Positions 17,381 to 46,914 of a DNA stretch of 64,000 nt are shown one piece after another. Source of the DNA: Euglena gracilis. Its lineage: Eukaryota. The stretch covers positions 46,169,847-46,233,846 of the forward strand of contig CP154954.1 of assembly GCA_039621445.1 (NCBI GenBank), read 5' to 3'. The position numbers and the translations under genes were made by a program. Position 1 is the first letter of the stretch. Each line of letters starts with the position of its first letter. Below the pieces are notes generated by a model, which searched no databases, had not been told where the DNA came from, and worked only from the letters and a program-made list of their open reading frames with translations.

Positions 17381-17409
17381 TTTAAGAAGAAAAGATTTTC
17401 CTTTAAGTG

Positions 17410-17790
17410 TGAGGCTTATGCCGTTCGAAACTCATTTGTGCACATGATCGAGGAGAATTTTCAAATAAGGGCCGAGAGAGGTGGATTTTTTTGCTTCTAC
17501 CCAAAATTCTCAGTGCACATCATGTTTGACCGAGAAGGGAAATGCTTTGGCGGTACCATGGGGAGGGGTGGGGCACGGTTTGGTTGAACCCCTCCTTGGT
17601 CATTATGGCCAAAGGTGGCAAAGAAATTGCGATTGCATCTTGCGTGATTGGAGCAAAGTTTGGGTAAGGTAATTTATCGGGAGGCATCAAAAAGTTTTAT
17701 TTTCCACCCGGAAGCAAGCTTTTTGAGGTGGATTGGAAACGAATGTGGGGTGTTAGGTAGGGAGTTTGGGCCTTGTTGATAGAGGGTAAT
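17410..17790 (+). pseudogene. Dam-like N6-adenine DNA methyltransferase domain in element A, copy 1 (frameshifted)
   Basis: EAYAV...DFFAS..NS...NAL..PW; WLNPPW is restored by removing one C from the run at about 17589-17592; followed by DW...LFE...VRW-like motifs. Confidence 0.75.
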
Positions 17791-23190: not shown

Positions 23191-23795
23191 AGGGAATTGG
23201 ACCTTTATTCTGGGAAACATTCAGTGAAAAATTGGTTGCAGGAAAAGCGTTATGAGGCGATTTCAGTGGACATCAACCCAGGTTTTCTCCCAACCCATCC
23301 CGTGGACATTCCTACCGTGGGAGTATCGAGCATACCCCCCTGGAAACTTTCAGGTCATAACGGCATGTGTGCCTTGCACGGGGTATAGCCGTGCTAAGAC
23401 GGTGGGAGAAAGAAGTTTGGAGTGGCAGACCAACTTGTGACAATAACTTTGGAAATCGTGGAATGTTTTCAGCCCAAATTATGGTGGATTGAAAATCCCC
23501 GAACGGGACTTTTGCCAAAAAGGCATTGTGTGCAACACTTGAATTTTATCGATGTGGATTATTGTCAATGTTCTGACTGGGGATACCAAAAACCCACTCG
23601 GATTTGGGTGAGTGAAAATCTGTTGAGTTTGAGAACAAACTTTGTGATGGGAAAAACCTGCCCGCATTTGATTGTGAGGGAAGGGGGTAGTTTGGTTCAC
23701 AAAGAACAGTGTGGAGGAAACGGAATGAGGGTGAGCATTCAACAAAAATGGGGGCCACCTGAAAAATTGGTTGAGTACCTTCTTTCGGCCCTTGA
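23191..23795 (+). pseudogene. C5-cytosine DNA methyltransferase domain in element A, copy 2
   Basis: RELDLYSGKHS, VPCTGYSRAKT, WWIENPRTG, DYCQCSDWGYQKPTRIW and motif X-like PPEKLVEYLL, spread across ORFs 22981-23388, 23252-23440 and 23422-24003. Confidence 0.85.
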
Positions 23796-23825
23796 TTTTA
23801 AGAAGAAAAGATTTTCCTTTAAGTG

Positions 23826-24200
23826 TGAGGCTTATGCCGTTCGAAACTCATTTGTGCACATGATCGAGGAGAATTTTCAAATAAGGGCCGAGAGAGGTGG
23901 ATGTTTTTGCTTCTACCCAAAATTCTCAGTGCACATCACGTTTGACCGAGAAGGGAAATGCTTTGGCGGTACCATGGGGAGGGGTGGGGCACGGTTTGGT
24001 TGAACCCCCCCTTTGTCATTATGGCCAAAGGTGGCAAAGAAATTGCGATTGCATCTTGCGTGATTGGAGCAAAGGTTGGGTAAGGTAATTTCTCGGGAGG
24101 CATCAAAAAGATTCATTTTCCACCCGGAAGCAAGCTTTTTGAGGTGGATTGGAAACCAATGGGGGGTGTTAGGTGGGCAGTTTGGGCCTTGTTGATAGAG
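23826..24200 (+). pseudogene. Dam-like N6-adenine DNA methyltransferase domain in element A, copy 2
   Basis: EAYAVRNSF...DVFASTQNS...GNALAVPW...VWLNPP...DWSKGW...GSKLFEV...GGVRWAVWALL, reading across frameshifts. Confidence 0.75.
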
Positions 24201-25505
24201 GGTAATAATTCCCCCGCTATCACCGGCAACCCCTAGAAACCTAGGGTAGTACACTTGAAGTTACGAATGGCTAAAAGGAGGTACCCACCCACAGGGATTG
24301 AGAAATTTTTGAAGGCCCGACGACTTTTGATTCGGACTAGGGTTGTTTTGGGGAACGGTGAGGAACAGAATATGGACATTTTGGCAGACACCGGTGCCGA
24401 GCCTAACCTCATTAGGCAAGGGTTAGTGAGTGAGCACCTGATGTATTCAGCCGAACACCCCTTGAGGTTTGAAACCACTAACGGTCAAGCCTTGAGTGGT
24501 GGGGGGAGGTGCACTAATGTGGTGATGAAGTTGCAAGGGGAGGTGAGTGACAACACACCACCCACATATTTTGAGTACGATGTGTAATTTGAAGAAGCCA
24601 ATATAAAAGTCGACGTAATTCTATCATACCGATGGCTTGTACGCACAAAAGTCGAAGTTTTTCCACACCACCGTGCCTTGGTAGTGGAGGAACCGGAATT
24701 GACATTTTTTTTCGGAGTGAGAGATCACAGGAGAAAACGGCAACGAAAAGTCCCTTGCACCCTACCCCAAGGAGGGGGTGTGACAAATTTGGAAAAGCTT
24801 GGCTTGCGCATTCTGATGGAGGGTTATTGATCAATGGGGAAAAGCCTTGGACGAAGATTCACTCAAAAATTTGGGCAGGAATTTGGAAACTGCAAGTGAC
24901 AACCCCCTACTGTTATTCACAAAATGATCACTGCAAGGGAGTGGAAGGGGAGCAAAGAAACGTAATCCGAAGAAGAAGACATAATAATAAAGCTAAGAGA
25001 CGAAATTTTTGGAAGGTAAGATGGAACCGTATTTCGGTCTAAGGAACAACCCGACCCACCCGTAAGAGGACCATATGGTTATGCATTATTACATTTGCAA
25101 GAAGGAGCGCGGCCTACCCGACAAAAACCATTTTTAATGCACGGGGAACGAAAAGAAGCTTTATAAAAAACCACTCAAGATTGGATCGATATGAAATTCA
25201 TCGAGCCAGCCACAACAAAATATTCAGAATGGCTCTCACAAACATTCCCGTGCCCAAAAAGTCAGCCGATTTCCCTTGGAGGCGGTTGTTGACACGAGGG
25301 GACCCAACAGCCAATGCAGTAGATGCAACCACCGTCTTCCTAAAATCGAAGACATCCTGGTGAAGCATGGTGCAAAACCAGACGTTCTCAATTTTGGATT
25401 TAAAACAAGACTTCCACCAACAGCCGCTTCACCCGGACAGCAGGCCTATAACTTGCTCCTTCACACCAAAGGGTCTTTACCAATGGAGGGTGAATGTAAT
25501 GGGGT

Positions 25506-25884
25506 TGTGGCATTGGACATTTCCCTACCTTTCAGATGAATTAGGCTTCGCCAGGTAATCTGCTCATTTTTTTTCTGTACAGTCAGACCTCATGAGTTGA
25601 TTGCTAGGCCCATGGGTCGTGGCCCCCTGGCGTGTATCAGGATCATGGGACTGACTGAAGGCTTGGAGATTTGAGTTTTGTGCTGTGGCTGAAGTTTGAA
25701 AAATTGAAGTAGAAGTTGCCTGCCAATGGGTGGGAATCCAAGGCCCACGGCGGAAGGCGAAGCAAAGGTATTGCAAAACCCAAGGCGAAGCCGAAGCCAG
25801 CCAAACAGGGGGCCCGGGGTCGGGCAGCTAAAAATGTATGAATTGCGAAGATAGCCCCCACCCAGGCGCCGCCCCTGTTTTACA
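25506..25884. mobile_element. Solo LTR (379 bp) inserted in the RT of element A
   Basis: Ends tgtggc...ttttaca; TSD gggt at 25502-25505 and 25885-25888; removal restores MGLTNA. A truncated copy sits at 19088-19317. Confidence 0.85.
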
Positions 25885-26173
25885 GGGTTAACTAACGCCT
25901 CACAACAAATACAACAAATGATGGATGACCGTTTAGCACCTGTAAGGGATATTGCCACCCCATACATTGATTACATTTTGGTAGGGTCCACTTTCGGGGA
26001 GGGGGAGGGTGTCCCCGAGGCAAACAAAAGGGTTTTGTGTAGGGTTTTGGATTTACTCACCGAGGAAATTTTTGTAGTGGACTCCAAAAAAGCGAAACTA
26101 TTCATCAAGGAAGTGGAATTTTGTTGCCAGATTTTTGGGGCATGGCACGCGTCGGCCGGCCCCCGGCAAATTA

Positions 26174-26722
26174 AACCCCCCCCCCAAATATAAGAAACCC
26201 CTCGCTATAAGAAACCCCCAAATATAAGAAACCCTTTGGCTGATTTTCAGCCGACACCCAAATATAAGAAACCCCCAAATATAAGAAACCCCTGGGCTGT
26301 TGGACGTCAATCCAAATATAAGAAACCCCTCATTTTCACCATGGGTCACAGCAAATCTCAAGGCGCGATCAACACAAAGATGAAGCCAATCTAGTCTATT
26401 GCTTCTTTGCAAAGCAAGAGTTCAGAAGCAACTGCTTTTTGGAAACACCTGTCCGTGTCACGACCCCCTTCCCGACTGTTTGAATGGCAGTCAGACATGA
26501 GGACAATCCTACACACACATGTGATGATTAATTACATGTGGTCACATGTAATTAATTATATGAAGGAACCGAAGGAAGAAAAAGTTCCATTTATAAGAAA
26601 CCCTTGGGGCCGGCCTTCGACACCCAAATATAAGAAACCCCCAAATATAAGAAACCCTTTGGGCCGATCGGCCGACACCCAAATATAAGAAACGGGTTTC
26701 TTATATTTGGGGGGGGGGGGTT
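26174..26722. mobile_element. TA-targeting MITE inserted in the RT of element A
   Basis: TIR aa(c)n-aaatataagaaaccc / gggtttcttatattt-(g)n-tt with TA flanks; removal restores PGKL|RAIEKW; many aaatataagaaaccc subterminal copies. Confidence 0.9.
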
Positions 26723-29700
26723 TACGCGCCATTGAAAAATGGGAGTGTACCTACAACCTTAACGGCATTAAGGGCTTTCCTCGGCTTCACAAATTATTAC
26801 AACACCTACATACACATGGATGCTCAAGTGGCGGCACCTTTGCAAGATAGTTTAAAGGTGTCTCAGGAGGAAGGCAAGAAAGGGAGCAAAAAAATGCGTT
26901 GAATTCGGGGAGGTTGCACACAAAGCATTTGAACAGTTAAAGAAGTGGTTGCTTTGCGGATTGATTCTTCAAAGGGTAGACCCCTTTGCTTTGAGGGTTG
27001 ATGCGAGTGGGTATGCCGTAGGACAAACTTTGGAACAACTCAAAGAAGGAAACGGTACGCCCACACCCCAAGAACTTTTTGGACAAGAAAACGGTGCTTG
27101 TTGCTTTTATGTCCCGAAAACTCACCGAGGGGCAAAGAAAATGGACCGCCCTGGACCTGGAGACATATGCCATAACTTTGGCACTCCAAAAATGCGAGAG
27201 CTGGATCGGTCCGCAACCCGTTTTGGTGTTGACCGATAACCAAAGTTTTGAGGCATGGGAAAAGGAAGCGCTCGACACCCCAAGTGGACCGGTGGGGAGG
27301 AGGGCACGATGGCACCAAATTTTCTCAAAATGCGATTTGAAAGTGGGGTACATTCCGGGGAAGGAAAACACTATCGCCCTCAGTTTAAGTCGGTGAGCGC
27401 ACCCCGCGTCGCACGCTTTAAGGGACATTAGTAAACACGGATCTGCTGAGGATAAGAAGGAAATGGAGGACCTCATAAGAGAGGAGAGTGAAGATGAGAA
27501 AAATTGCTTGTTGGTCAAATTCAAAAACCAGCCTATCGCTCGTAACATGTGGATAAGGGGGGGTAACCCGCAGTGGAAAAGAGGTGGCACCCAATTTTGT
27601 GGATGATGCATCAGGGAGGGGTACCGACAGTGTAGAAAGTCCGGGACGAATAAGCACCACCGAAGACGCTCACTCACAAGGGCCTAGGGATTTCTGGTTC
27701 GAAAAACGGTAAGAGGAGAGTTACCTTTTGGGATGGAGTGGACCCTGCGGGACATTTGGTGACTAGCCCAAAACTTCCGACTAATGAGTTACCAAGGGGG
27801 AGGGACGGAGAAGGTGTGGCCAACTCCAAGTGCAACCCCCAAGCTAACAAAATGAGTTTGGGAGAGAGATTGGGTAGTTGCGTGTACCGAATGATCATCT
27901 TGGAAGGAAATTTGGCTAGCAACTCAAAATGACGGTGAGTGGCCAAATGGTGTTAAATTTCACAAAGACCGTAAACAAATATGTTTTTTTTGAGGTGAGG
28001 TTGTGTGTTCCACTTTCTTTTCAAGAATTAATTGCGCAAGAAGTCCATGAATTCTTGGGACATGTTGGTCCCAAAAAAGTGTGGAATTTAATCATTTTGC
28101 GGTACGCATGGGCTGATGAAAAAAGGGCACTTGTTTTAAACGAAAGTTGTTCCAAAAATTGTGTCACATGCCAAGCAAGTTCACGGCGGGAGACTTTGAA
28201 GGGACACATATATTCAACACCCATTCCACCGGCACCCATGGTGAGTGTGGCCTTAGATCTTTTCAAAATGCCATTGGCAAAGTATAAGGGGGAAAAGTAC
28301 AATACCATGGCGGTGTGTGTTGAACGGCACTCCGGTTGGATCGTGGCCATACCGTTTTTAGAAAACGCTCAAACATTGGAGGGCTTTTCGGATTCGTTCA
28401 ATCATTTCTAGTGACCAAGGGAGTCATTTCGTGAACACATGGTGGCAAACCATGTACTCATTTTTTGGGACTTCGACAAGCTTTTTCTCAACGCTACCAC
28501 CACCAAGCCAACGGGCGGGTGGAAAGGGGGTCAACAAGTAATGCAGATTTTGACGAAACTCTTTGTGGACGGAAAAATGATTTGGGTTGAGGCTCTACCC
28601 CAAACTTTGGACAGGATTCTTGATGTGAAGGGGGAGGGTGGTTTTAGCCCATACCAAATTATGACCGGTAGGAAACGTCCTTTTGGGGGGGGTCCCTTAC
28701 CAAGCACCAAAAGAGTGCCAGGGTTCCCAACTATTTTTTCATCGAATGAAGCTAATCCATGAAACGGTGGCAAAGGGTTCAAACCATACCCATGAGGTCC
28801 AAGCTGAAAGGATTAACCGAGGTCGAAGGGAAATGGAACCATTAAAAATTGGAACCCATGTGTGGTACAAACGACCTGAGGGTTCGGGTGAAAAATCAAG
28901 TTAGAGGTGGATTGGTCCCGGTATTGTTAAAGCTCGGGAGGGGGAGAGGAGCTACGTTGTGGAAACCAAACTGGGTGTGCAAATTAGGACACACTGATGT
29001 TTTCTAAAGGAGCACAGGGAACCACCAGTTTTTGGCAAATGGGTTCCTCTTTATTTTTTCAAACGGACTGAAAAAGAGGATGAGGCAATGCCCGATGAGT
29101 TGGAGGTTGAGAAAATTTTGGCCCACCGTAGGAAGGAGGATTCGTGGAATTTCTCACCAAGTGGGTTGGTTGTGAGGAGGAGGAAGAAACCTGGGATAAT
29201 ATTGGAGTTTCATTCACCGTTCCAGGAATGAGTTTGTTCGGTATTGTGCCCACAAAAATCTGAAGGTGAATTTAATTTGGGGGCTTCAAAAAAATCTGTG
29301 AGCCAATTTCAATTGCGGCCCAATTTTGCTTTTCTTTCGGATTTGACGGGGTACGCTCAATTTTTAGAAACTCTGGGAGGTGGAACGGGGCCGAGTGCTG
29401 TGCGGCACCGGGGGGACGTGATTTCTCGCTCCTCCGCTCATTTCTATCCTCCATTTTGTATTTGCACGTTTTTTTTGTATGCGGGCAAATAAACACACAC
29501 ACACTTGATTTTTTTTGCGTGCGTACACATGCGTGCATTATTATTTTGCTTGTTTTGCCCGCGACACTTTATCTTGCTTATTCTTGTTGTTTAGAATTGG
29601 CCTCTTTATCACAGGAGTGAAGCGGGAAGCTCCAGCACTCCGCGAGCCCCGACCTAGTGATTATTGTAAATAGCCGCTGTGCATGTGTAAATACCAAAGT

Positions 29701-30732: not shown

Positions 30733-33700
30733 TGGACGTTTCAGAATATTCTTTTGTGTTCCTTGAAATCCTCGGATTTACAATTTTCTTGATATCCCAA
30801 TTGTCCCAAAGAGGTAAACACAAGCCAATGTGACATGAAACCAGAGCCAGCAGTCTGCGGGGGGGGGGGGGAGGGAAGTTCGAATTAGGAATACAAAAGT
30901 CAGTTCCGCAGTTGGTAAGGTAAGCGGTCAGCAAATAGTTCGCACACGACCCCCATGCCGGAGGACGCGGCGCCACAGGCACAGGACGAAACAGCATCAC
31001 ACCACAAAAAAAGGCGGCTTTACGGTTTTTCAAGCATTGATGAATGTGTTCCACACGAATTGTCCACAAAAGGTTCAGAACGACAAATGTCAACACAAAG
31101 AAAGGTAAAAGAGGTTACTTCCGACATTCACCGCGGTCCCTTCACTTCGTGGTTGGCTTGCATTTCAAAGGTAACACAAACCTGGGCGAAACTCCTTGCA
31201 TCAATGGCAGGTTTGCGACTGAAAGCCCTCAAAGGTTAGATGACAATCCACCATGGCGAGGCGGGTTGGTGTCTCCTGACCCGAAAAAACATCCAAAAAG
31301 GCCCCCTAAGGGGCTTGACTTTCTTCCCGCGTGTCTGAAAGCACGATCAAAACGTTTGGGGAGAGGCCAGGCTGTCTCTTGAGATGCCAATCCCCATTCA
31401 CATTCTTAAACGTCACAAAACATTCTGAGCGCCTGACGCATGCTCCCACCAAACCAAAAATTTCCATTCCCCTTGGTTCTTGTGCTCAAAATCTTGTAAA
31501 CATTGTAAAAACCCAATTGTGCTTGTTCTTCTTCTGACATCTGAAGGAGGGTCCCATCCCTGGTATGGCACGGGGGTGACACCTGCACTGGGTCTCCCAC
31601 AACCACATCACCGGTCAAAAGGTCTGGGTCTTCTTCCTAAAGACTTTCTTCATTCAAAGCAACCTCCCACTTTTTGCAAAAACCCAAAGAAACATAAATG
31701 ACCCCTCCCAAAGATGGACTGCCTGCAATTTGCACTGAATTGAACCTCAATTTGAGAACCCGAAAAGGTCCTTGCCAGGGGGGGAAAGCTTGGGCAATGA
31801 TTTTTTTGGCCATGTGAACCAAAACATAGACATCTTCTTGAATTTCTTGCTGGTACCCTCCCTTTGTTGGCACTCTCAAAATCTTTTTCCCTCAATTCTT
31901 TCAATCTCTGGGAAGCTCTTTCTTGAATTTCAATGTGGGTCAAAAGCCAGGAATGGGTGTCTGGGTTTGTCACCGGTTCTGGGGGTAATTCAAACCTCCA
32001 AGGTGGTCTTCCCAAAAACATTTCATGGTGTGACAGCATTGTTGTGGGGGGAACCTGTGAATTCATCAAAAATGTGCAATACGGAATCAATTGAACCCAA
32101 TTTTTGTCCTTGGAAGACAGACACAAAGCTCTCATACTCTGCAAAAACATTTTGTTGACATTTACAACCAAACCGTTTGATCTGTGGTTCCGGGGTAGCG
32201 AAAACGATAATTTCACGTCTAGAGCTTTTAACGCTGTCTGGTAAAAACCACTGGGCTGTCTGAATTGCACGTCGTTGTCAGACCTCACAACGGATGGTTT
32301 TCCAAAAACAGCAATCCACCTGTCTAAAATAAGCCTCAAATCACCTTCTCCGGTTACCGTTTTCTGTGTGGGGATGAATTGGCAAAAATGGGACAAATTA
32401 TCGACCAAAGTCAGCACATAGTCAATACCATTGTAGGGGTCCATTTGCATAAAATCCAAACACAAAACTTCACTGCTCACTGTTGACATCGGTAAAGAAC
32501 CCACCTTTCATCGGTCACTGGGGCGGTTTTGTTTTGAAAGGGTGCAAATTTCACAGGTCATCACAATGGCCTTGCAAATTTCCAACATGTCTTTCTTGGA
32601 CACCTTCGACTGAAATGGCTCAAAAAGAACAACAAAGTCCTTTCAGCACCCACATGGTTGCTTGCCTTGTGACATTCATCCAAACAAACCTTCAGCAAAT
32701 GAGATGGAACAACCAACGTTCCTTCGTAATACATTGCCTTGGCAGATCTGAACCAGAGCTCATTGTCAGTGAAACAGGGTTTTGAAACCTCCACATTTTC
32801 CCAAAATTCTTTCAGTTCTGAATTCAAATAATCCTTTTCTGACACTTGCACTCTGTGGGACACACTGAAAATCTTTTGCAAAAACAGGTCAAGCTGCACA
32901 TCCATTTTCTGAAGAGCGCTCCCTGCTTCTTCCTCAAAACGAATTTCAAATTTGCTCTCAAAATCAGCACGAGCCAAAACATCACACAATTCATTTTTGC
33001 AACCTGCCACAAGAACAACGTTCAGTTTGAACTGGTGCAAAAGCACATACATCCTTCTCAGCCTTTTTTTGGGGGGTTCACCCTTCAGAAAAGAGGTGGC
33101 TGCCTCATTGTCTGTCATCCACACAATTGGCAAATGTTGCAAAATCCTTGTTTGTGAAGCAGTGGTCAGCACACCACTCAAAATTTCCTTTACCCAGGTT
33201 GTGTATTTTTTTCTTGCCTCACTCCACTTCCAGTTGTAGTGGCCCAAGGGCACCAACCTCATTTCACTGGGGTAGTTGTTTTTCAGGGTCCCCTCCACTT
33301 TCACACAACTTGTTCGAAAATTTTCAGGAATTTGTGTTTGTTGGAGGGTTTGCCACTGAAACAAAGTAGGACCACTCTCAAATCCGAACTTTCAGTCACC
33401 AAAACAATCTCTCCTGAACTCCTGGGGGTACCTAAAACATCAAGGGATGATAATTTCCTTTTCAAAGCGTTCAAACAACTCTCCTCCTTTTCAGTCCACC
33501 TCCATTTCACCTTCTTTTCAGAAGATCTGTCAGTGGGGCTGAGTCAAAGGTAAAACCTTTCACGTGATTGTGATAAAAATTCATGGCCCCCAAAATTCGC
33601 CTCAAATCCCTTTGGTTCTGAACTCGAAAACTCAGAAATGGTTCAACGTTTCTTTTTTTTTCCTGCCACATTCCCCATCCCAACAAGAAACCCAAGTAGT

Positions 33701-36700
33701 CAATAGTATGATTCAGAAAAGAACATTTGCTCAATTTGATTCTCACGTGGTTCTTTCTGCAAACTTCAAACCACTTTCCCAAAAGATACAAATGGTCCTC
33801 CTCAGAATTCGCACCAACCCCTGTGTCATCGAAAAAAAGAAGCCAGATGTCCATCTTTCAAAATTTCTCTCACCCTCAAATCCGTTTTCCATTTGGAGGT
33901 TAGGATTTCCGTCAGCTCCTGAAAAATTTCTGGGGCATTCATCAACCCAAACATCATCCTCTTTGGACGAAAACACATTCCCTGAAGGAATGCAAAATGC
34001 AGAAAAATTTGCTGCTCTTTTTGTGATTGGGATTTGCCAATACCCACTCCTGATGTCCAGGGTACTTTTGAACCGACACTTGGCAAAACTTTCAATCAGG
34101 ATCCCCATGTTTGGCAAAAAACCTGCATGCGCTTTGCTTCTGGAATTCAATTTTCCATAATGAATGACCATCGTTCTGGTACTTGACCCTTTTTTGTCCA
34201 CCAAAAATGTGGGGCTGCACACCTGGTGGATTTCACCAACTGGGAATTGCTGACCCAACCCTGACTTTAGCAATTCTTCGCACTGAAGGTCAATTTCTTT
34301 TTCATCCTCCTGGGGCATGGGCCAACACTTTTGCCTTAGGGTTTCCCTTCCCATTCAGGCTTCAGCTCAATGTCCATCAAAACAGGCAGGGGGAAGACTC
34401 AGAAATTGTGGGCAGTGGTCCAAAAACATCATAAAATTTCACCAAAAGCTCATACAACCTGGGGTGGTTTCTGAATTTCTCAACTTCTTTCTCAAAATCT
34501 CCACTCAGATTCTCAGTAAACAATTTGTGGCTTTTTTCATCAGCCTTTTCTGGGCCTCCAAAGTCCAAACCTTTTCATGTAAAACTTGGGAAATGCTTTT
34601 GAGTTCATCCATCTTGACTGTTGCCTTGGGAGTCTTCACAGATTTCACAAATTGAACATCTTCCACAGGCTTGGACAGCTGGAAAAACATCATCTCCACA
34701 TCTCTTCTCACCTCCTGAAAAAGACGCAGCTCAGTTTCAATGTCCTTTGTCAATTCAGCCAAAAATTGATGTTTTCATGCTCACTCATTGGTTCAAACAC
34801 CACCACATTGTCCAACCATTCCTTCATCTTTTCTTCTGATTCTTTGGAGGGGACTTTCTCCACAGAGAAACTTGGACTTTCAAAAATTTGCCGGGCTGCA
34901 GGTGGATTGGCAGATTGTTGTGCATGCTGCTGGGGGGGAACATCAGGAAGATCTGGGAAATCAACTTGAATTTCATCATCCACTCTGGGGTACTTTCTGA
35001 TCTCACCTCTCAGTTCATGCAAAATCCAATTTCTTGAATCTTTCCTGAGCCAACTGACAGTTCTGGGGTGCAAAAGCTCAAAATCCACTTTGAATTGCAC
35101 TGTGTCCACCACACTCACAAAATTGTTCCACAGGGGGGAGGGCAGCACCTTTTTGCACCTGTCACCGACAAACAAGGGAACCCCACTTTAAATTTTCACC
35201 CTGGCCACCGGTACCCTTTCCAGCAGGGGGGGACCAGTACTGGTCCACCCAGTCTGAGCACACCAGGACCATTTTTGTTTCTTCAAGGCACAACTTGGTC
35301 ACCACTTTGCTTAGTTGGCTGAAGGGGGGGGTTTGCCCACAGAAACTTGGAAGCACCAATGTAACACAACAATTTTTCCTATGAATACCTGTAGGCCGAA
35401 TTCCCTTTCGTCATGTACAAAGACTGTGTGTGGTTCAGGTGGTTTGCAAAAAGATCAATGCAAAACTAACCCTCAGAAATCTTCAATTCTTCCAAAGCTT
35501 TTGACTTCACTGGCTTGACCAAAGGGTAGCTTTATGCCTTGAAAAGTCTGAAAATTATTTTGATGGTGTGGTCTCCATCATGGCTCTGAAGTAAAACCTC
35601 CTCACCGTCGATGATGGTTCTTGGGGGTCTGGTCAACAACCCCTCCAAAAACTCACTCTCTGTGAAGTCAGTCCCAAAAACTGCCTCAAAGGCACAAGTA
35701 TCCACCACAACAGCTTTCAGTTTCAAAATCTTGGACCCAAACTGCAAACACATCTCACACGTTCCCTGGGGAAAAATGTACTCCCCATTGCCGATCTGCA
35801 GGGGTACCGCAGCACTCCGGTCAATTTTATTCTCAGGAAAAAATTTTCTCAGAAACTGCAGTAATGGTGGCCCCTGTGTCCAAAATGGCTTGAACGTCCT
35901 TTCCATAAGCCTTCGCTGGCAAAAGATAAGTTTTACACACCATCTGGAGCAATTGCAAAGCATCAGCTTTTCTCTTTTTCGGGCTTGCACCCTGGGGGTA
36001 ACCTGGGTTTGAACTCCTTGGGGTTGAACGGAGGGGGTCCCTTTGCCTGCCCCCTTCTGGGCTGCCGCCTTCTTTTTCCCAAACTTTTTTTTACGAACAT
36101 CTGTCTTCATAATGCCCTTCTTTTGTGACAAAATCGACAGAAAATTGTGGCTCCAAATCGTAGGGCTGGGGTGTCATCAACTTTTCTTTCACCCTTGCCT
36201 TTGCCTTTTCCTTTGCCTTTTCCTTTTCCACCAGATTTTCCACAAAATCTGTCTGCCCTGATGTCTGCATACATTCTGGGGTGTAATTTTCTCAGCAAAA
36301 CCAGAAACATTTCCTGTTCACTCATGTCCTGGGGGCTCAACCTGGCCATCAAGTTTTCCAACTCGATGAAAAGTTTTTTGATGTCTTGTGGTTCAGGGTT
36401 CTGTGAAAGTGCTGGCAATTTCTCGATGGCAGATCTCAAAGTCATGTCATTTTCCAGTGTTGGGAACAATTTTGCAATTTCCAACAGCACTTTTTCAAAA
36501 TCATCATGCTCTTCCATCACCTTTTCAACCAGTTTTTTCACCTTGGGGGTGCAACACTCCAACAGCCAATCCTTTTTCTGGACATTTCCAAATGCAACAG
36601 CACCAGTTAACCTCAACCATTTGCCAAAATATTTCAAAAGCTCTGGCCAATTTGCACCATCAAACTCTGGCGATTTCACAGGTGGTAATCTTGAACTTTG

Positions 36701-37501
36701 GGTTGAACTTTAGCTGGGGTTGCTGGAGTTTGGTTCCACAATTTGCTTCAGAAATGTTTCAACCTGGGTGATGGGGTTCACAGGAGTAAAACCAGACTGA
36801 CTGCTGCTGGATGCTTTTATTTCCAATTCTTGCAACCTCCTTTCCAAATCTTCAATGGAATACATTTCTGCAGATCACTTTCAAAAAAACTCAACTACTG
36901 GCTCTGTAAACTGAGAGAAACTGGCCAACCCAAAAAGACAAACAAAGCTGAAGAAACCAGAACAGAAAACCAACCACTGGGTTCAGGACCACGTCAGCAA
37001 GATCATGAAGATCTTGCCCCCACCAGGTTCTTGTTCTGGACAGCAAGGTGAACAGCAGCACCAGCAGCTTCAATAGCCAAGTAACCAATACAACAACTGT
37101 TGAATTCTCCACTGAGAACTTGTTGACCACAGCTTGAATGACAACTTCCTGTTGAAGATGTTGTTCTGTACCAGCCACTCGGTTAACCTTGCCTTCAGGA
37201 AGACCAACTTCTGGAACTTCAACAACCAGTGAAACAATGATCAATCTCCTCGAAGACTTCTTGGACGATTGGAACAACAAACCTCTGCGACCAACTTTGG
37301 ATGTCTCACAATAATATTTTGTTTTCCTTGAAATCCTCGAATTCCCAATTTTCTAGATATCCCAATTGTCCCAAAGACGTGAACACAAGTCAATGTGACA
37401 TGAAACCACAGCCAGCAGTCTGAGGGGGGGGGGGGAAGTTCGAATTAGGAATACAAAAGTCAGTTCCGCAGTTGGTAAGGTAAGTCAGCAAATAGTTCGC
37501 A
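30733..37501 (-). mobile_element. Element B: full-length degenerate Ty3/Gypsy retrotransposon with order gag - PR - Dam-like MTase - RT - RH - IN (possible chromodomain)
   Basis: LTRs 30733-30944 and 37298-37501 (TG...CA). TSD atatc at 30728-30732 and 37502-37506. tRNA-type PBS tggtcgcagagg (37282-37293). gag SPEFDG..W, RT SPTFLVDKK / LDIRSGYWQI / FFDD, RNase H WMTDN, integrase LCLDF...VRSDND.QF. Confidence 0.92.
35105..35530 (-). pseudogene. Dam-like N6-adenine DNA methyltransferase domain between PR and RT of element B
   Basis: Manual minus-strand translation: SYPLVK...FCIDLFANHLNHTQSLYMTKGNSAYRYS*EKL...FLWANPP(fs)FSQLSKVVTKLCLEETKMVLVCSDWVDQYWSP(fs)LLE...GVPLF...PLWNNFVSVV. Confidence 0.8.
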
Positions 37502-39724
37502 ATATCCCCCTCAGTCACATATGCCATCCCCCTCTCAGGCACAAATGCCGCTCCCCTCTCAAGCACAACCGCCACTTTGTGTCCATCCGGCCCCTGTGCC
37601 AAGGGGAGCTTCATATGCGGCAAAGCCTCAGCAGGCATATCAAGTTTCAATGGAACAACAACCTCAGCAGGTACACCAGGTTGCAATGGAACAGCAACAA
37701 TATGTGAGGCAGGGATAAGCACCTCCAATGGAGCAGGCGCATTACGCCATGCCTGGTCCCTCACCTCCCATGCTGTACACACCACAGTATGTTACCTCTC
37801 AGCAACCACGGACACAACCCCAACCCCAACCTCAACCCCAACCTCAACCCGTACAGGGGTTGCGGCACCTTGTATTCGCCGAACCAACAGCAGCGAGAGA
37901 AATGGAAGTCAAAAGGGAAAGCATCCATACACATGAAACCAAAACGTCATATGCAAAGATAATGCCCTTTCCCAGAGGTGTGTCCTTAGAATGAAATAAG
38001 TTGGAAAAGGTGAGGAGGGTGGTTCCAGACCTCCCTTGGACTCTCCCCCATTCATTCAGGGAACATTCAGCAAGTACTCGGACTCCCACGACACAGGAAG
38101 GGGGAGGAAGGGACCAAGAGGACGAAGCACAAGAAGATGGTGAGGATGGCTGCCATTGCCTTGGACTTTAGCCCAAGGCCCTGTAGATAGATGGCCGCCA
38201 TGACCATTTTGAGGAGGGTCTCCACATTCCTGCCTTGAACCCTTTGAATTTGTCATATTTCCCTGCCATAGGGGTGGGGAATAGAAAAGGGATGGGTGGT
38301 CTGCCAGACCTGTCCTTCCATCTCCTGACAATGTTTCCTTGATGGAGGACTGTGATGGGTCCCCATGACCCAATGAGCCTTGCCCATGATGGCTTCTCCG
38401 TCGCTTTGCTCTGGCTAAAATTGTCCAGGGTCCATGGCGTCACAAACGTTTTGTTGAAAATGGGAAATTTCTGATGAACTGGGGGGCGAAAGGGGTGTGG
38501 CAGCCACAGACGGACCGGTTGGTCCTGCTCCATCATCATCAGGTTCCCCAGCGCCTGCAGCTCCTCGGTGTTTTCCAGCTTCAGCTGTCTGTTTTGAGCT
38601 TCCTTGTCCTCCCACTTTCTCTTGACAGCTTGATATTTTTTACAAAACAACTTTCATTGAAGTCCGTTGAGCACGTGCTTGATATTTGAGTTTCTTTTGT
38701 CTTTTTTATTTGCAGCACTCGTAGAGTTGAAAGTCTTTCTCCTTGAGGTCGAAGGGCAGAGTTAGGAATCAGCCAACTCCGGCAAAAAAAAGCAGTAAGA
38801 AGCACCCCCCGCACACGCAAAAACACACCAGAGCAGACACCTCGGGCTCCGCACTTTGCCCTTGTGCTCGCCGGCGGTGTTGTGTGATTGTTGCGCGTTG
38901 GGTTAGGACTCCCTGCTTAGTGCCTTTATTTCGCCAGAGTTTGCTGATTCCTAAATTGCCCTTCGACACCCAGAAGAAAGGAGAACACCTCAACTCAAGG
39001 CTACGAAGTCACCAAAGAAAGTTCAAGTCAAACTCAAATTCCAGAACGAGAAGATCCAGCAGAATATCAAACTTCAAAAAAAATTTCAACAACTGACTTC
39101 AATGAAAGATGACTTGGGGAAGAAATTGGTATTACGACGAGAAGCAGCGGTGGCCGCAGCAGCAACCTGGAGATGCGGACAAGCCGTGGCAAGCTGTGGT
39201 CACCCCTTCCCCACCCCTCTCAGAAATTTCACAACAGCCAAACCCCCCCAGTGACCACAGCCATTGGCAGACAGTGGTCAGGAAATCCAGAAAGGGGAAA
39301 GGACCAATGGCCCCAGGCCCTCCAAGGCCCAGGGCCCAGCCCAGACAGGACTTCCAGGGCCAAGTGCCCTTACAATTAAAAATACCAGCCAGAAATTCAG
39401 GCCAGAGGGCCAGAGCCCACATGGGCAGATGGAACCAAGGCCAAGGGGGAGAGCATCACAGAGGCCATGTTGGCGGCGGCCCCTGGGGTGTGGCGCCGGG
39501 CGGGGCCAAAAAAAGACCAACAGCGGAATCTTCCGCTTTGCGGAAGTTCCTAATTTAAGTTTATTGGACTGCCTCTCTGTAGGTGGTTCCGAGCCTGAAC
39601 ACTTCATCCTATCAAGCTGGCAAAGTGTTGTGCATTCAAATATCAAAGGAAGAAGGGAAAAGACACCCCAAAGAGACACCCAGAAAACTGAAGTGTTCAT
39701 CAACCAAACTACCAGAAGACCAGA

Positions 39725-40597
39725 ATGCCAGAGTCAGAGTACCAGAATGCCAAGGCCAGGAGGATGACTGTCAGTTGGAGGCCGGAAGAAAATCACTCGG
39801 AAGTGCAGGAAGCGACAGACTGGAGCTGGAGCAGATGGAGTGTCCGACTTCCAGAAGAAGGATGGAGATCTGCATTGACAGTGTGGGATGGCCAAGAAGA
39901 AGAAGAAGAATCAAGGAGTCCAGCTCCAAGCTATGAAGGTGCAGCTGAAGAACCGGAAGTGCCATTGCAGCCATTCAGGAGGAGAAATGTGGTGATGGAG
40001 AACCGACCAGATCCAGGAGAACCAGAATCAGGACCAGCCACAGATGAGGAGTACTACGAGGTGGAAGAGCCAGAGACCCAGCCAAGACCAAGTGGAAGGG
40101 GAAGAAGAATCAAGAGGCAGTACATCTCCGAGGAGTACGCTGTGAGCTGGGAATTTATCGACCTGATCCTGGAAAAGTTCAACATTCGGAAGGAAAGAGT
40201 GCAAGAAGCATTTGCATCATGGGAAAATGCAAGATTCCCCAAGTTCTGGACGAAGGAAGACAATGCATTTGGGAAGACATGGACAAGAGAAAAGATATGG
40301 GCCAATCCACCGTGGACGCTGATGAATCAAGTCATCCTCAAGATCATCGCGGACCAGGTGCAGGAGATGGTGCTGATTGCACCAGAGTGGCGCACAACAA
40401 CATGGTGGCCAGTGCTGCAGAAGATGACAGTGAAGTTCATCATCTTCGAGGAAGGAACCCGGTTCTTCGAGATCTGGGACCAGCAGGCGGGCCAGATGCA
40501 GCCGACTGGGCCATTGCGTTGGCCAGTCCGGGCGTGCTTGGTCCAGTACCGAAGATTCCGAGGAAGAGACCCTGAAGGGCATGCCCCCAGGAGATGA
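39725..40597 (+). CDS. Dam-like (phage/DIRS-type) DNA N6-adenine methyltransferase with an acidic N-terminal region, intact ORF
   Basis: 290 aa: EEYAV...EAFASWENARFPKFWTKEDNAFGKTW...IWANPPW...VLIAPEW...WWPVL...GTRFFE...PLRWPVRACLV. A basic GRGRRIKR patch precedes the domain. Confidence 0.85.
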   Translation: MPESEYQNAKARRMTVSWRPEENHSEVQEATDWSWSRWSVRLPEEGWRSALTVWDGQEEEEESRSPAPSYEGAAEEPEVPLQPFRRRNVVMENRPDPGEPESGPATDEEYYEVEEPETQPRPSGRGRRIKRQYISEEYAVSWEFIDLILEKFNIRKERVQEAFASWENARFPKFWTKEDNAFGKTWTREKIWANPPWTLMNQVILKIIADQVQEMVLIAPEWRTTTWWPVLQKMTVKFIIFEEGTRFFEIWDQQAGQMQPTGPLRWPVRACLVQYRRFRGRDPEGHAPRR

Positions 40598-40712
40598 AGG
40601 AGCATCGTCCCGAGCCCGCAGGAGAAGTGGAGATGAACGTGGACTCTCCGAGGCGTGCAAGAGGAGGTACCGTCGACAGCGGTACCACTGGTTCACGGAG
40701 ACGTGGGAATGA

Positions 40713-41272
40713 GGCGGTGTAGACCGAGTGTTGCCTGCCATCCCCCTCCCAGCCTAATCCCCTCCTCGGCCAGTATCCAAGATCCCTGATCAGAAAAGGA
40801 TGGAAATCATCATGATTTCAATTGTGCACGTATTGGCTCGGCACAGAAAGAATGACTGAAAAATTCCAGGTGTTGGTTGTCGATTGTCGATGGATGCTCT
40901 GGGAGGTTCGACGGCCCGTCACTCCTGATGGGGGGGGGGTGCTCTGGGCGGTTCGGCTGCCCGTCGCCGAAAATGAATCGTTGGGTTGGTTGGAGTGTGG
41001 TGGTGTGGACCCAAGGGTTGCCTGCCCCCCAATTTCAATTCAGTGGAATTCGATCAGATCTGCAGAATGGTTGGCATAGAGATGGCGGTGTAGACCTGCG
41101 GGTTGCCTGCCCCGTGTATTCTGTTCGATGTGAATTGGAAGCAGATTTGCATGAATCACAGGTGTGTGTGGCGGTGTGAACACGATGTTACCCGCCCCCA
41201 CCTCGATGAAGGAATTGAGGCCCTGGGATCTTGATTTCGAGAGTGGCGGTGTGAACTCCTATGTTACCTGCC
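40713..41272 (+). repeat. Five copies of a 27-28 nt bulged hairpin GGYGGTGTRRAC-N5-6-GTTRCCYGCC with unique spacers
   Basis: Copies start at 40713, 40999, 41084, 41170 and 41245; loops are cgagt, ccaagg, ctgcgg, acgat and tcctat. Confidence 0.8.
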
Positions 41273-41413
41273 CCCCATTCATCATTCACTATGTGGACAT
41301 TGAGCGGACCCTGGATTGCGATTCTAATCCCCAGACTCAGAATTTGCTGTACGTTACTTCCTTCCCCCCCCCAAAAAAAACCCCAGCCACACCCCGGCAA
41401 GGAAAAGAAAACG

Positions 41414-41725
41414 GCCTCGGGCCCACGGGGGCCGAGGCCCCCCCCAGGGGGAAACCCCCCAGGGGGGCCCAAAAAAACCCCAGGCCTCGGGCCCACGGGG
41501 GCCGAGGCCCCCCCCCCCCAGGGGGAAACCCCCCCGGGGGGTCCCAAAGGGCCCCCCCGGGGGGTCCCAAAGGGCCCCCCCCCCCACCCAGGGGGAAACC
41601 TCCCCAGGGGGGCCCAAAAAAACCCAGGCCACGGGCCCACGGGGGCCGAAGCCCCCCCCCCCCAGGGCGGGCCAAAAAAACCCAGGCCTCGGGCCCACGG
41701 GAGCCGAGGCCCCCCCCCCCCCCCG
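41414..41725 (+). repeat. GC-rich tandem repeat (ggcctcgggcccacgggggccgagg units) in the 3' internal region of element C
   Basis: Four to five degenerate units, each self-complementary (cctcgg...ccgagg). Confidence 0.75.
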
Positions 41726-44700
41726 AAGCGGACAGCTTCGGGGGGACCAAAAAGAACCCGAACACTTCTCCGGGGCCGCCTCAAAAATTGCCGAAGGCGG
41801 TACGCAAGCGGTCCGGGAGGGGAGTGTTGGCGGCGGCCCCTGGGGTGTGGCGCCGGGCGGGGCCAAAAAAAGACCAACAGCGGAATCTTCCGCTTTGCGG
41901 AAGTTCCTAATTTAAGTTTATTGGACTGCCTCTCTGTAGGTAGTTCCAAGCCTGAACACTTCATCCTATCAAACTGGCAAAGTGTTGTGCATTCAAATAT
42001 CAAAGGAAGAAGGGAAAAGACACCCCAAAGAGACACCCAGAAAACTGCCATGGCGGCCAGTATTTCAAGTCAACCCCCACTGGGAGAGGTCATCCAAAAG
42101 GTCTCCCAAAAATTTCTTTTCAAAAAGTCTTTTCCACATTCCCCACAAAGGGGCAGGGTCAATGCCCCCCAAGATTTCAATTGGGCATGGAAGCCAGGGA
42201 CAGAGAAAGATGCCCAAGACCCAAGGGGGGTCAAGACCATTCAACAAGGGCAGGAGACCCTTTCAAAGCAGGGCCATGGCGGCCAATATCTGCTGGGCCA
42301 CGACGGCATTCCCCAGGCCATGGAGGCCACACACCAGGGCCATGGCGGCCATTTATTTTCAAGCCCGCTGGGCTCATTATGCACAGGCCACTGGGGCCAG
42401 AAGCTAAGGGGCAGCCCCACAGGGGCTCTTTATATAAATCAGCAGCCCCAGGAGGAAGAGGGAACCCCAGTTTCCCTCAAGGAGGATCAGGTGGAAGGGG
42501 GAGAACCCCTAAAAGCATTTACACTTCTTCATTCCAAATTGAATTTGTCAAGGGGGGCACCATCAGAGGCTGCCCAAGAAGTTTGTGAGATTGGCCAGTG
42601 GAGGGGGGTGGAGGCTTTTGCAGCCCACTATCAACGACTTGGTGCCCAAGGTGCCCTAGAAAATGCCCTGGCCCCCCTAATTTCAGTGCAGAATCTGGCC
42701 TCACAAGGGCAAAGTGCGGAGCCCGAGGTGTCTCGTACTCCCTCGAGGAAAACCGACAAGGGAGGAAGGGACACCGAGGGCGAAGCACAAAGACCTTGCG
42801 AGCCCGACCCCCCCACCCGTAAAAGAAAATTCGTCTTCAAAAGCCCTCGGTCAGAGAGTGGGGGCCAGGGGGGGCAGAGGGGGGGGACCCCCCCAAGGGG
42901 AAAGAGAAAACGCCACAGCCGCCACGTCGGAGCCACATCGTCAGCCAACTCCGGCGAGGCGGCACTAAGCAGGGAGTCCTAACCCAACGCGCAACAATCA
43001 CACAGCACCGCCGGCGAGCAAGGCATGGCCTCGCAAGGTCTTTGTGCTTCGCCCTCGGTTTCCCTTCCTCCCTTGTCGGTTTTTCCTCGAGGGAGTACGA
43101 GAACAGCCGGCAAGGACAGCAGGACCTCACCATCTCGCAGTGCGGAGCCCGACTGGTCGTGCTTTCCCCACGCTGTCCCGCTTTTTGCCCATTGGAAAAA
43201 CGAAAATGGCTCAGAGTCCGAACCTCCGGTGCAAAAGAATTTCGATTCTTTGGAAACTCCTGTGATCTCCCAACTTGGGGGGTCAATTCAAAAATGCACT
43301 TCTCAAAACACCAGAAATGTTCGGGTGAACCCTGAAAATCGCGACATGCCAAATAAAGATCCCAAAAGTGAAACCAATCGAACAAAATTTCTGGAGACCT
43401 CAATCATTGCCCTTAAACGCCGCGGTGTAGCTTAAAAAAGCTACACGCAAGAGGATCTGAGAAAAAAAAAATGCAATTGAACTTTTTTGTTTCCTCAGAT
43501 GAGCGTTCCTTGGACGAGGGATGTCGTGGGTGCGGAACAAAAGTCTAACAGAGAAAATTTTCTTTGACAATTGGGGTGAAGGCATTCTTGAAGGATGTGG
43601 ACTGATGTACAACGGATTTTGGGGTCGAAATTGATGCCCCCACGCAAAAACGCCAACCAACCTCCCCAATCAATAATTGCCCTCGGGAGGGGGAATATTG
43701 TTCTCTAAGTCTGGAATATTTTTGAGGAGGTTTTCGAGCATCAGACAACATATGTCCCACATCCCTCCCCCAAATGATCCCATGGCAACAAGGCTGGTCA
43801 CTCCGATCAAAACAGCAAGGATAAATAAAAATCAAAAAAAAAACGAAGCCGAAAAGGTAAACAAGAAGGTTGGTTTGGCTATTTTGTGGTCAAAGATTGT
43901 CCGGTCATCGCGTGCGGTTGCCACCTTGGTTGTGTTGTTGGTCAGCTATGAGACAGTACAGCCTGCCATGGCGCTGCCAGGCACAGTATGGTGTTGCACA
44001 TGCGACCCTGCTCCGGCAAAGGTTGCACGGTGGCAGGGACAACGTGATAAGCTCACTCCAACAAACCACTAAACTCACAGTCCATAATGAAATGGGCATA
44101 TGAAAAGTGAAATTGGTCCACACTCCATTGTGAAATTGGCGAAACAGCACTTGTGTTTGGCAGCGCTAATTGCCCACTGCCATTTTTTTGGCATTTTTTC
44201 GATGGTTGGGGTCCGAGGGGTTTTGTGCATAATTCTCCGAGAATTCCCTGAAAGAAAAGAAAATTTGAGGGGTTCAAATATGCCCCAAATTTTGGGCAAT
44301 TTTGGATTGGGCATATTAAGTTTTAAGCGGTTGGGAATTGCCCCTTGGAACCAAAAATTTTGAGGGAAGACTGCAGTTAGGCGGTTCCCCCTTGCGAAAC
44401 AAATGCATCTGCAGAGAAGGGAAACTGTCCTCGGAATACAAGCAAAAAGCGTTCGGGCGGCTATCCGCCCGAAAGACGGATGGATCCGGACACACTTGTG
44501 TTGTGCGCGCTTGCCCCGGGTTGCTCTGGTTTATTTGGGCAGATTGTGGTGGGGAATGGAATAACGTTGGCGTTTGCGGGCGAGTCAGAGTTGGGAAGAC
44601 GCTGAAATTGCAAACAGTTCATTGGTGCCTATGGTGCCACAAGTGAACAACTTTGGCAAAAGGGGAAAGGTAGCTGAGCTGATGGTTATAGGGAGGCAGA

Positions 44701-45006: not shown

Positions 45007-46914
45007 GGGTTACGGTAGGAGGATGTTCCGTAGGAGGATGCTCTAGAGCATCCTCGAGTGTCGCTCGAGGTCGCTCGAGGATGCTCTAGAGCATCCTCGA
45101 GTGTCGCTCGAGGTCGCTCGAGGATGCTCTAGAGCATCCTCGGGTGTCGCTCGAGGTCGCTCGAGGATGCTCGAAAACATCCTCGAGTGTCGCTCGAGGT
45201 CGCTCGAGGATGCTCTAGAGCATCCTCCTGCGTACATGCATGCATGTATCATGAGACTCAGAACAGATTTCGAACGGGGCACTTTGTTGGATTGGCACTG
45301 GCACTGGGGGACCATGAATTGAACATCCCTCACAGGCACCACACAGCAGGCACCCTCGAGCTGTTACTCAACTGTTCGAGGGCCCCAAAATAACAAAGTC
45401 CCTTGTGTTTCCCCGTCGTTTCGGGGGGCAAATCCCTTCTGTTGCTCAACTCTTCGAGGGCCCCAAAATAACAAACTCCCTTGCGTTTCCCAGTCGTTTC
45501 GGGGGGCAAATCCCTTCTGTTGCTCAATTGTTCGAGGGCCCCAAAATAACAAAACCCCTTGTGCTTCCCAGTCGCTTCGGGGGGCAAATCCCTTGTGTTT
45601 CCCAGTCGTTTCGGGGGGCAAATCCCTTCCGTTGCTCAACTGTTTGAGGGCCCCAAAATAACAAAATCCCTTGTGCTTCCCAGTCGTTTCGGGGGGCAAA
45701 TCCCTTGTGTTTCCCAGTCGTTTCGGGGGGCAAATCCCTTCCGTTGCTCAACTGTTCGAGGGCCCCAAAATAACAAAATCCCTTGTGCTTCCCAGTCGTT
45801 TCGGGGCCAAATCCCTTGTGTTTCCCAGTCGTTTCGGGGGGCAAATCCCTTCTGTTGCTCAACTGTTCGAGGGCCCCAAAATAACAAAATCCCTTGTGCT
45901 TCCCAGTCGTTTCGGGGGGCAAATCCCTTGTGTTTCCCAGTCGTTTCGGGGGGGCAAATCCCTTCTGTTGCTCAACTGTTCGAGGGCCCCAAAATAACAA
46001 AATCCCTTGTGCTTCCCAGTCGTTTCGGGGCCAAATCCCTTGTGTTTCCCAATCGTTTCGGGAGGCAAATCCCTTCCGTTGCTCAACTGTTCGAGGGCCC
46101 CAAAATAACAAAATCCCTTGTGCTTCCCAGTCGTTTCGGGGGGCAAATCCCTTGTGCTTCCCAGTCGTTTCGGGGGGCAAATCCCTTGTGTTTCCCAGTC
46201 GTTTTGGGGGGCAAATCCCTTCCGTTGCTCAACTGTTTGAGGGCCCCAAAATAACAAAATCCCTTGTGTTTCCCAGTCGTTTCGGGGGGCAAATTCCTTG
46301 TGTTTCCCAGTCGTTTCGGGGGGGCAAATCCCTTCTGTTGCTCAACTGTTCGAGGGCCCCAAAATAACAAAATCCCTTGTGTTTCCCAGTCGTTTTGGGG
46401 GACATACATGCATGCATATACGTAGGAGGACGTTCGAGATGTCGCTCGAGGTTGCTCGAGGATGCTCTAGAGCATCCTCGAGCGTCGCTCGAGGTCGCTC
46501 GAGGTTTCTCGAAAACATCCTCGAGTGTCGCTCGAGGTTGCTCGAGGATGCTCTAGAGCATCCTCGAGCGTCGCTCGAGGTCGCTCGAGGATGCTCGAAA
46601 ACATCCTCGAGTGTCGCTCGAGGTTGCTCGAGGATGCTCTAGAGCATCCTCGAGCGTCGCTCGAGGTCGCTCGAGGATGCTCTAGAGCATCCTCGAGTGT
46701 CGCTCGAGGTCGCTCCAGGATGCTCTAGAGCATCCTCGAGGGACGCTCGAGGTCGTTCGAGGATGCTCGAAAACATCCTCGAGTGTCGTTCGAGGTCGCT
46801 CGAGGTCACTCGAGGATGCTTTTTAAGCCCCCCCCTGGAGGGGGGGGGGCTTAAAAACGCTCGAGGATGCTCGAGCTCGAGCGCTCGATCTCGAGCATCC
46901 TCCTACGGTAACCC
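45007..46914. mobile_element. Non-autonomous TIR element with CTCGAG-rich subterminal arrays and an internal minisatellite
   Basis: TIR gggttacggtaggaggatg / catcctcctacggtaaccc; ctcgaggatgctctagagcatcctcgag arrays at about 45030-45230 and 46430-46900; related degenerate copy at about 50880-51515. Confidence 0.8.
45362..46400 (+). repeat. Complex minisatellite built from about 28-bp and 32-bp modules
   Basis: Modules atcccttgtg(t/c)ttcccagtcgtttcggggggcaa and ttgctcaactgttcgagggccccaaaataacaaa alternate irregularly. Confidence 0.9.

Follow-up and report, generated by a model that had tools for sequence, protein, structure and literature searches.

A 2.58-kb LTR element carrying a Dam-family gene

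We analysed a 64,000-nucleotide stretch of the Euglena gracilis genome (GenBank assembly GCA_039621445.1, contig CP154954.1, positions 46,169,847 to 46,233,846 of the forward strand), hereafter the window. At positions 39468-42046 of the window lies an element of ~2.58 kb that is bounded by long terminal repeats (LTRs) and has an open reading frame (ORF) of the Dam methyltransferase family as its sole recognisable gene. We refer to it as the mini element. Its features, all on the plus strand, are as follows.

39464..39467, +, left target-site duplication GCCA, with the LTR read as 222 nt
39468..39689, +, 5' LTR, 222 nt, TG...CT; the repeat extends 1 base further, to 39690
39525-39550, +, imperfect palindrome of 26 nt in U3
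39551-39559, +, TATA-like TAATTTAAG in U3, a putative promoter element ~40 nt 5' of where the RNA is inferred to start
39596..39606, +, putative self-primer, exactly complementary in reverse to 39689-39699; the transcript, and with it R, is predicted to begin with these 11 nt
39689..39699, +, putative self-priming primer-binding site (PBS), overlapping the final LTR base
39725..40597, +, single ORF of 290 aa (protein P0001)
40106..40570, +, Dam-family N6-adenine methyltransferase domain, residues 128-282, with the NPPW catalytic motif at residues 194-197
40560..40712, +, out-of-frame remnant of a basic C-terminal tail and its stop codon (40710-40712); frame change near 40560
40713..41814, +, non-coding 3' region, 61.5% GC, with dispersed and tandem hairpin repeats
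41815..41824, +, polypurine tract (PPT) GGGAGGGGAG, ten purines, directly abutting the 3' LTR
41825..42046, +, 3' LTR
42047..42050, +, right target-site duplication GCCA

The terminal direct repeats (39468-39690 and 41825-42047) are identical at 220 of 223 nt. At each of the three differences (39585, 39591 and 39616) the 5' copy has G and the 3' copy has A. We looked for other coding capacity between the repeats. A Pfam scan of the six other ORFs or reading frames detected no family, hence neither gag nor pol; the same scan, together with that of the Dam ORF, revealed no tyrosine recombinase. Reverse transcriptase (RT)- and protease-bearing relatives of the Dam protein gave no tblastn match to RT or protease inside 39468-42046. 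An earlier, sequence-only reading of this DNA had described 222-bp LTRs with three differences, a 4-bp target-site duplication, a PPT, self-priming, the lack of gag and pol, and one 290-aa ORF with the Dam-like motifs FAS..NA, NAF..W, WANPPW and PEW; all of these are borne out here, every quoted motif included. Its description of the element as young is also reasonable, with LTRs that are 98.7% identical as against 89% for a neighbouring Gypsy element.

Signals for self-priming and the 3' non-coding region

The putative primer and PBS form a positioned complementary pair, with the PBS at the LTR boundary. In 5000 shuffles of the LTR, a primer/PBS match of at least 11 nt anchored at the LTR boundary arose twice, and the minimum-free-energy RNA fold of 39596-39705 pairs exactly the 11-nt primer and PBS. 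The RNA of the Tf1 retrotransposon provides a precedent: its first 11 bases anneal to the PBS, and RNase H cleaves them off (PMC7175516). Self-priming has also been predicted for the Tcn1 (Ty3/gypsy) and TAR (Ty1/copia) lineages (PMC6317226). Based on the 11-nt pair and the Tf1 precedent, we infer that the RNA of the mini element starts near 39596; the ATG at 39725, with which the Dam ORF begins, is the first ATG downstream of this position. The mini element thus resembles Tf1/sushi elements in having an LTR stretch complementary to the boundary between the LTR and the internal region, of the same length as in Tf1 (PMC7175516), and in that no tRNA-type (TGG-type) PBS was seen when the sequence at the 5' LTR edge was read. 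It differs in having no RT by which it could be placed phylogenetically, and its RNA 5' end and RNase H cut are predictions from the sequence.

Downstream of the coding region, the non-coding stretch contains two kinds of hairpin repeat. Hairpins of ~30 nt with the pattern GGCGGTGT...GCC are dispersed through it; three copies, at 40999, 41084 and 41245, fit one pattern within two mismatches, and two further copies were recognised by eye. Differences between copies preserve the pairing. Tandem G/C repeats of 58-70 nt at 41413-41721 form very stable hairpins (-49.9 kcal/mol for one unit). An Rfam scan of 38500-43500 returned no match, and it is a guess on our part that these repeats might be packaging or export signals.

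The insertion site

Two exact copies of a 14-mer, GGCCATGGCGGCCA, start at 42272 and 42338, and two copies that differ at a single position lie at 42316 and, on the minus strand, at 38192; the number of matches expected in shuffled sequence is 0.06. The right junction of the mini element reads TGCCATGGCGGCCA and the left flank terminates in ...GGCCA, so that excision of the element together with one GCCA recreates GGCCATGGCGGCCA exactly. The sequence-only reading had instead pointed to a target reading frame that is restored when the element is removed. At the level of the letters this is correct, yet neither a Pfam match nor a homologue was found for the target ORF that flanks the mini element. 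Hence, we rejected it as a real gene and replaced the argument from the frame with the 14-mer, which is the better evidence for an empty site.

These junctions bear on whether there is a mobile unit here at all. A host methyltransferase gene might lie by chance between dispersed repeats or solo LTRs, and the mobility of the mini element is read from its structure. However, a 4-bp duplication, a PPT and an 11-nt primer/PBS pair in the expected position all fall at the edges of the repeats, a motif of 14 nt found nearby is restored to the letter by excision, and the Dam family is overwhelmingly associated with retroelements, as reported in a recent preprint (10.64898/2026.05.21.726589). A chance arrangement around a host gene is thus scarcely plausible, and we treat the mini element as an insertion.

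The region around the insertion site has repeats of its own. Inverted repeats bracket the site (38835-38947 versus 42702-43102, with segments of 60 nt at 98%, 32 nt at 100% and 57 nt at 96% identity); one such pair is 38865-38947 / 43020-42941. Since the mini element sits between inverted repeats, the target may itself be a repeat; a foldback repeat of ~1.7 kb, or one bounded by terminal inverted repeats, may harbour the mini element as a nested insertion.

P0001 is a predicted N6-adenine methyltransferase with a damaged C-terminus

P0001 matches the Pfam Dam family (PF05869) with an E-value of 1.4e-10 and 41.5 bits against a cut-off of 28.1, which upholds the amino-methyltransferase identity for which the sequence-only reading had proposed this comparison. 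An alignment of 86 sequences has 11 columns that are invariant or nearly so, and at each of them, including N194-P195-P196, P0001 matches the consensus. We used this alignment to build an AlphaFold2 model, in which residues 1-130 are disordered and a confident domain spans residues ~135-280 (predicted local distance difference test score >95). The N-terminal part is acidic as well as disordered. A PDB search with the sequence of the Dam ORF gave no significant match, and the best score in a search of the ESM Atlas, 0.86, is a lead only. For the model, the top Foldseek match is PCIF1, a cap adenosine-N6 methyltransferase (6irw, E 1.2e-4), followed by KsgA/DIMT1 at E 6.5e-4 and weaker, with ErmC' at rank 20. 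With VIA-align wide, PCIF1 (6irx) scores Z 10.2, KsgA/Erm/DIMT1 Z 8.5-9.2, T4 Dam Z 8.3 and E. coli Dam Z 8.1. The model therefore indicates that P0001 folds as an N6-adenine methyltransferase. RNA adenine methyltransferases are among the best structural matches, and the substrate may therefore be RNA or an RNA-DNA hybrid.

The closest database protein to P0001 is P0002, which has 170 aa, is 96% identical and comes from a 1009-nt contig. When P0002 is aligned to the window by tblastn, it follows the frame of the Dam ORF at 40199-40561 and then continues in the next frame at 40560-40709 (residues 121-170, 88% identity). Eight relatives extend as far as the C-terminus, and in five of them a comparable basic tail follows the Dam domain. 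Given the switch of frame in P0002 and the basic tail in relatives, we conclude that the window copy has suffered a frameshift near 40560, which replaces ~50 tail residues with 11 unrelated ones and leaves the catalytic core unaffected. The ORF had been called intact; this holds for the catalytic core and fails for the basic tail. P0002, in which the basic tail is in frame, represents a second copy elsewhere and is the sole further near-identical protein known. The window copy appears recent but is already damaged.

Relatives of P0001

An exhaustive profile-free search with P0001 identified 1279 representative proteins at E<=0.001; for 150 of them the E-value was <=1e-10. We scanned 20 of the longest among these 150 against Pfam, in two sets of 10. 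RVT_1 was found in seven of the first 10, in the orders RT-(RNaseH)-Dam or Dam-RT. The second set had RVT_1 in one protein, a weak protease match in two, and a sub-threshold cytosine-methylase match in one. Thus, the relatives of P0001 include PR-Dam-RT and Dam-RT polyproteins (PR, protease). A word search for longer fused forms gave none.

We then placed P0001 in a quick tree, for which the support values are those of the Shimodaira-Hasegawa-like approximate likelihood-ratio test only. The tree has 128 rows, namely the 126 of 156 proteins with at least 110 profile positions and two shorter proteins that are informative about architecture; 28 were dropped for coverage. P0001 and P0002 form a pair with support of 99. 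The group around this pair has weak support (81-89) and comprises 13-16 rows, each of which is short (144-280 aa). Those nearest relatives that have the N-terminal part share an acidic E-Y/F-x-E-V-E stretch and SEEYAV. All ten rows that bear RT or protease fall elsewhere in the tree. Because the nearest relatives are likewise short stand-alone ORFs with common motifs, the stand-alone Dam ORF looks like the conserved architecture of its clade and not like a recent accident. One sub-cluster of relatives (P0003, P0153, P0154 and P0155) consists of four proteins of 221 aa each, from four contigs, that are 87-100% identical with no insertions or deletions; their motif is NAPF, as against NPP(F/W/Y) in the family.

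Retroelements with a Dam domain include the DIRS1-like retrotransposons, the class classically known to carry a Dam-like methyltransferase domain. The mini element could in principle derive from an element of the DIRS, Ngaro or PAT type that inserts by means of a tyrosine recombinase, by recombination instead of by integrase. Its Dam domain is homologous to theirs, and three distant relatives of P0001 (P0102, P0148 and P0149) are RT-RNaseH-Dam polyproteins in the DIRS-like order. However, the terminal repeats of the mini element are plain direct repeats of equal length, neither inverted nor split, a duplication flanks them, and both a PBS and a PPT are present; no tyrosine recombinase was detected between them; and P0001 falls apart from the four RT-Dam rows in the tree, if with weak support. 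We regard a DIRS-type origin as very improbable, and hence consider the mini element further as an LTR retrotransposon.

Dam-bearing Gypsy elements in the same window

A tblastn search with all 156 proteins of the family revealed a degenerate Dam in each of the two autonomous-type Gypsy elements of the window; LTR elements with a Dam domain are thus common in this genome. These two elements and a further LTR element in the window are listed below.

30733-37501, -, degenerate Ty3/Gypsy element with, in this order, gag, protease, Dam, RT, RNase H and integrase
~19324-28762, +, second Gypsy-like element, with a frameshifted Dam at ~23800-24300
10611-12191, non-coding LTR element of 1.58 kb resembling a terminal-repeat retrotransposon in miniature (TRIM), with 370-nt TG...CA LTRs that are 98.9% identical and a 4-bp AAGG duplication

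The TG...CA LTRs of the minus-strand Gypsy element, 204 and 212 nt long, share 89% identity, and its target-site duplication is the 5-bp GATAT. Its Dam, at 34960-35708 (P0095, E 2.5e-52), is broken by stop codons and frameshifts. In the plus-strand element, protease, RT, RNase H and an integrase zinc finger lie downstream of Dam, at ~24237-28762. The 5' 6.3 kb of this element is tandemly duplicated (13025-19317 / 19324-25731, ~96% identity, with a small internal inversion), and a duplicate Dam is present at ~17390-17900. We found no LTR pair for it.

We considered whether either Gypsy element could be the helper of the mini element. P0001 itself had no tblastn match to either Gypsy Dam at a limit of 1e-2, and its relatives P0003 and P0008 are only 27-29% identical to these domains. 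We rejected a helper in the window on the grounds that there is no LTR similarity, and that the minus-strand Gypsy has a 5-bp duplication and a primer-like match of only 7 nt. An autonomous Gypsy with the same LTR, which the sequence-only reading had proposed to look for, is thus missing from the 64 kb. From the lack of shared LTR sequence and the distant relationship of the Gypsy Dams to P0001, we conclude that the helper is not in this window.

The presence of autonomous DAM-bearing Gypsy elements in the same window also lends itself to another explanation, in which an autonomous element with Dam as its first ORF inserted here and subsequently lost gag-pol between the Dam stop codon and the PPT. 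The mini form would then be a one-off deletion that never transposed. LTRs and target-site duplication would look alike after such a deletion, a single copy is visible in the window, and the 1.1-kb repeat-rich non-coding stretch could mark a rearrangement. However, Dam lies within a polyprotein in the RT- or protease-linked relatives that we examined. In the mini element and the 13-16 nearest representatives, by contrast, Dam is encoded by a short ORF, which for P0001 has a first AUG and a stop codon of its own. Moreover, no remnant of gag or pol is detectable in the mini element. We therefore consider a one-off deletion unlikely.

The plus-strand Gypsy element has one further feature. A stretch just upstream of its Dam, at 23191-23607 (and at 16776-17189 in the duplicate), shares 36% identity (E 1.5e-18) with the C-terminal part of P0077, a protein with a sub-threshold match to the cytosine-5 DNA methylase family (PF00145, E 0.005, 16.7 bits versus 22). 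Combinations of adenine and cytosine methyltransferases have been named 'EpiLTRs' (10.64898/2026.05.21.726589), and by its sequence the stretch may be a second methyltransferase module of this kind. The two window pieces themselves had no Pfam or PDB match. With sub-threshold support only, we did not accept a cytosine-methyltransferase-like module in this element.

A model for mobilisation in trans

Taken together, the mini element is probably a non-autonomous, self-priming LTR retrotransposon that is mobilised by a helper Gypsy element, with a Dam-type methyltransferase as its sole product, and the window holds a young copy of it with a damaged tail. Under this model, the 2.58-kb RNA would carry in cis the signals for reverse transcription and integration, namely U3-R-U5, a Tf1-like self-primer and PBS, and the PPT. 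Transcription would start near 39596; the RNA would fold back so that the 11 nt at its 5' end pair with the PBS, and cleavage by the RNase H of the helper would yield the primer. The helper, a Ty3/Gypsy element, would supply Gag, RT/RNase H and an integrase that makes 4-bp duplications, and the RNA of the mini element would be packaged. The methyltransferase would be translated from the mini element's own RNA. It may mark complementary DNA (cDNA), the RNA-DNA intermediate or the new insertion with N6-methyladenine (6mA), which would favour permissive chromatin, as in the model put forward for Dam-bearing LTR elements (10.64898/2026.05.21.726589).

Several observations weigh against this interpretation. 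The predicted fold of the self-primer is no more stable than that of shuffled sequences (z -1.21), and the case for self-priming therefore rests on the positioned 11-nt match and not on folding energy. The usual termini of LTRs are 5'-TG...CA-3', with known exceptions; the LTR of the mini element begins with TG but its 3' end is CT. The Dam ORF of the window copy is frameshifted at its C-terminus. No other element in the window shares the mini element's LTR, and the duplication at the neighbouring minus-strand Gypsy is 5 bp long, as against 4 bp for the mini element. There is a single copy of the mini element and of its LTR within the 64 kb, and scans of metagenome, viral and prokaryote contig collections revealed no further copy: in metagenome contigs, queries with the family alignment and with P0003 gave 197 and 57 pattern matches, respectively, none of which was confirmed; in viral contigs, one distant locus (L001, 27% identity) was found and the LTR pattern had no match; and in prokaryote genome contigs, none of 25 pattern matches was confirmed. 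Lastly, expression of DAMs from DIRS elements and from Dam-bearing LTR elements in dam-deficient E. coli is reported to have produced no rise in 6mA (10.64898/2026.05.21.726589), and DNA activity of this family is therefore unproven.

Comparison with known elements

A preprint by Fernandez-Moreno et al. (bioRxiv, 22 May 2026; 10.64898/2026.05.21.726589) describes Dam domains in Ty3/Gypsy LTR retrotransposons, termed 'DAM-LTRs', so the earlier statement that no such element had been described is out of date. Among 10,030 eukaryotic Dam proteins, the authors report association with DIRS and, newly, with Ty3/Gypsy elements; they find DAM-LTRs enriched in 6mA and in expression, and propose that the enzyme marks cDNA or new insertions with 6mA. 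The mini element is similar to DAM-LTRs in being an LTR retroelement with a PF05869 Dam that has the NPP triplet, in a host genome that also has Dam-bearing Gypsy elements. It differs in that the DAM-LTRs described there are autonomous, with Dam inside or beside pol, whereas the mini element has no RT, protease, integrase or gag. Thus, Dam in an LTR element is of a known kind, and the novelty is an architecture that keeps Dam and nothing else. We found no description of an LTR element reduced to Dam alone in the literature searched, where the full-text matches listed were off subject, and the main text of the preprint contains neither 'non-autonomous' nor 'stand-alone'. In that study, 46.1% of Dam sequences are without domains of transposable elements and are regarded as degenerate remnants (10.64898/2026.05.21.726589). 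Because classification there is by protein domains and not by LTR structure, Dam-only LTR elements would be filed as orphans.

Other classes of reduced LTR element offer a second comparison. TRIM elements and large retrotransposon derivatives (LARD) are non-coding, and terminal-repeat retrotransposons with a GAG domain (TR-GAG) keep gag. The mini element shares with these classes short LTRs, a PBS and a PPT, the lack of pol, and presumed mobilisation in trans; what sets it apart is that Dam, an accessory enzyme, is kept while all structural and replicative genes are lacking. DIRS1-like elements, for their part, have the homologous domain and are set apart from the mini element by their tyrosine recombinase, their inverted or split terminal repeats and the lack of a target duplication.

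The recognition of Dam-carrying retrotransposons is very recent and raises the question of what the enzyme does in them. A retroelement free of gag and pol in which Dam is kept isolates that question: if such elements multiply, then Dam must aid the propagation of a retroelement by itself, and part of the large fraction of 'orphan' Dam genes would be structured mobile elements rather than debris. We raise, with more doubt than confidence, the further suggestion that Dam-only LTR elements are a long-lived non-autonomous lineage that keeps one 'epigenetic' gene and borrows everything else. If so, many orphan Dam ORFs dismissed as decayed would be members of it, including the environmental stand-alone relatives of 165-280 aa, and the methyltransferase would benefit the retroelement independently of the element's own RT. 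Such a benefit might lie in marking cDNA, an RNA-DNA hybrid or the new insertion, or in repaying the helper in trans. With three distinct Dam-bearing LTR architectures within 30 kb, this genome is suited to a search for helper-parasite pairs and to a comparison of 6mA between copies.

Two minor observations concern the rest of the window. In the TRIM-like element at 10611-12191, a search for a self-primer gave no match of at least 6 nt. Downstream of the mini element, 45034-46820 is occupied by large tandem arrays of 43-nt and 112-nt repeats, which are partly palindromic.

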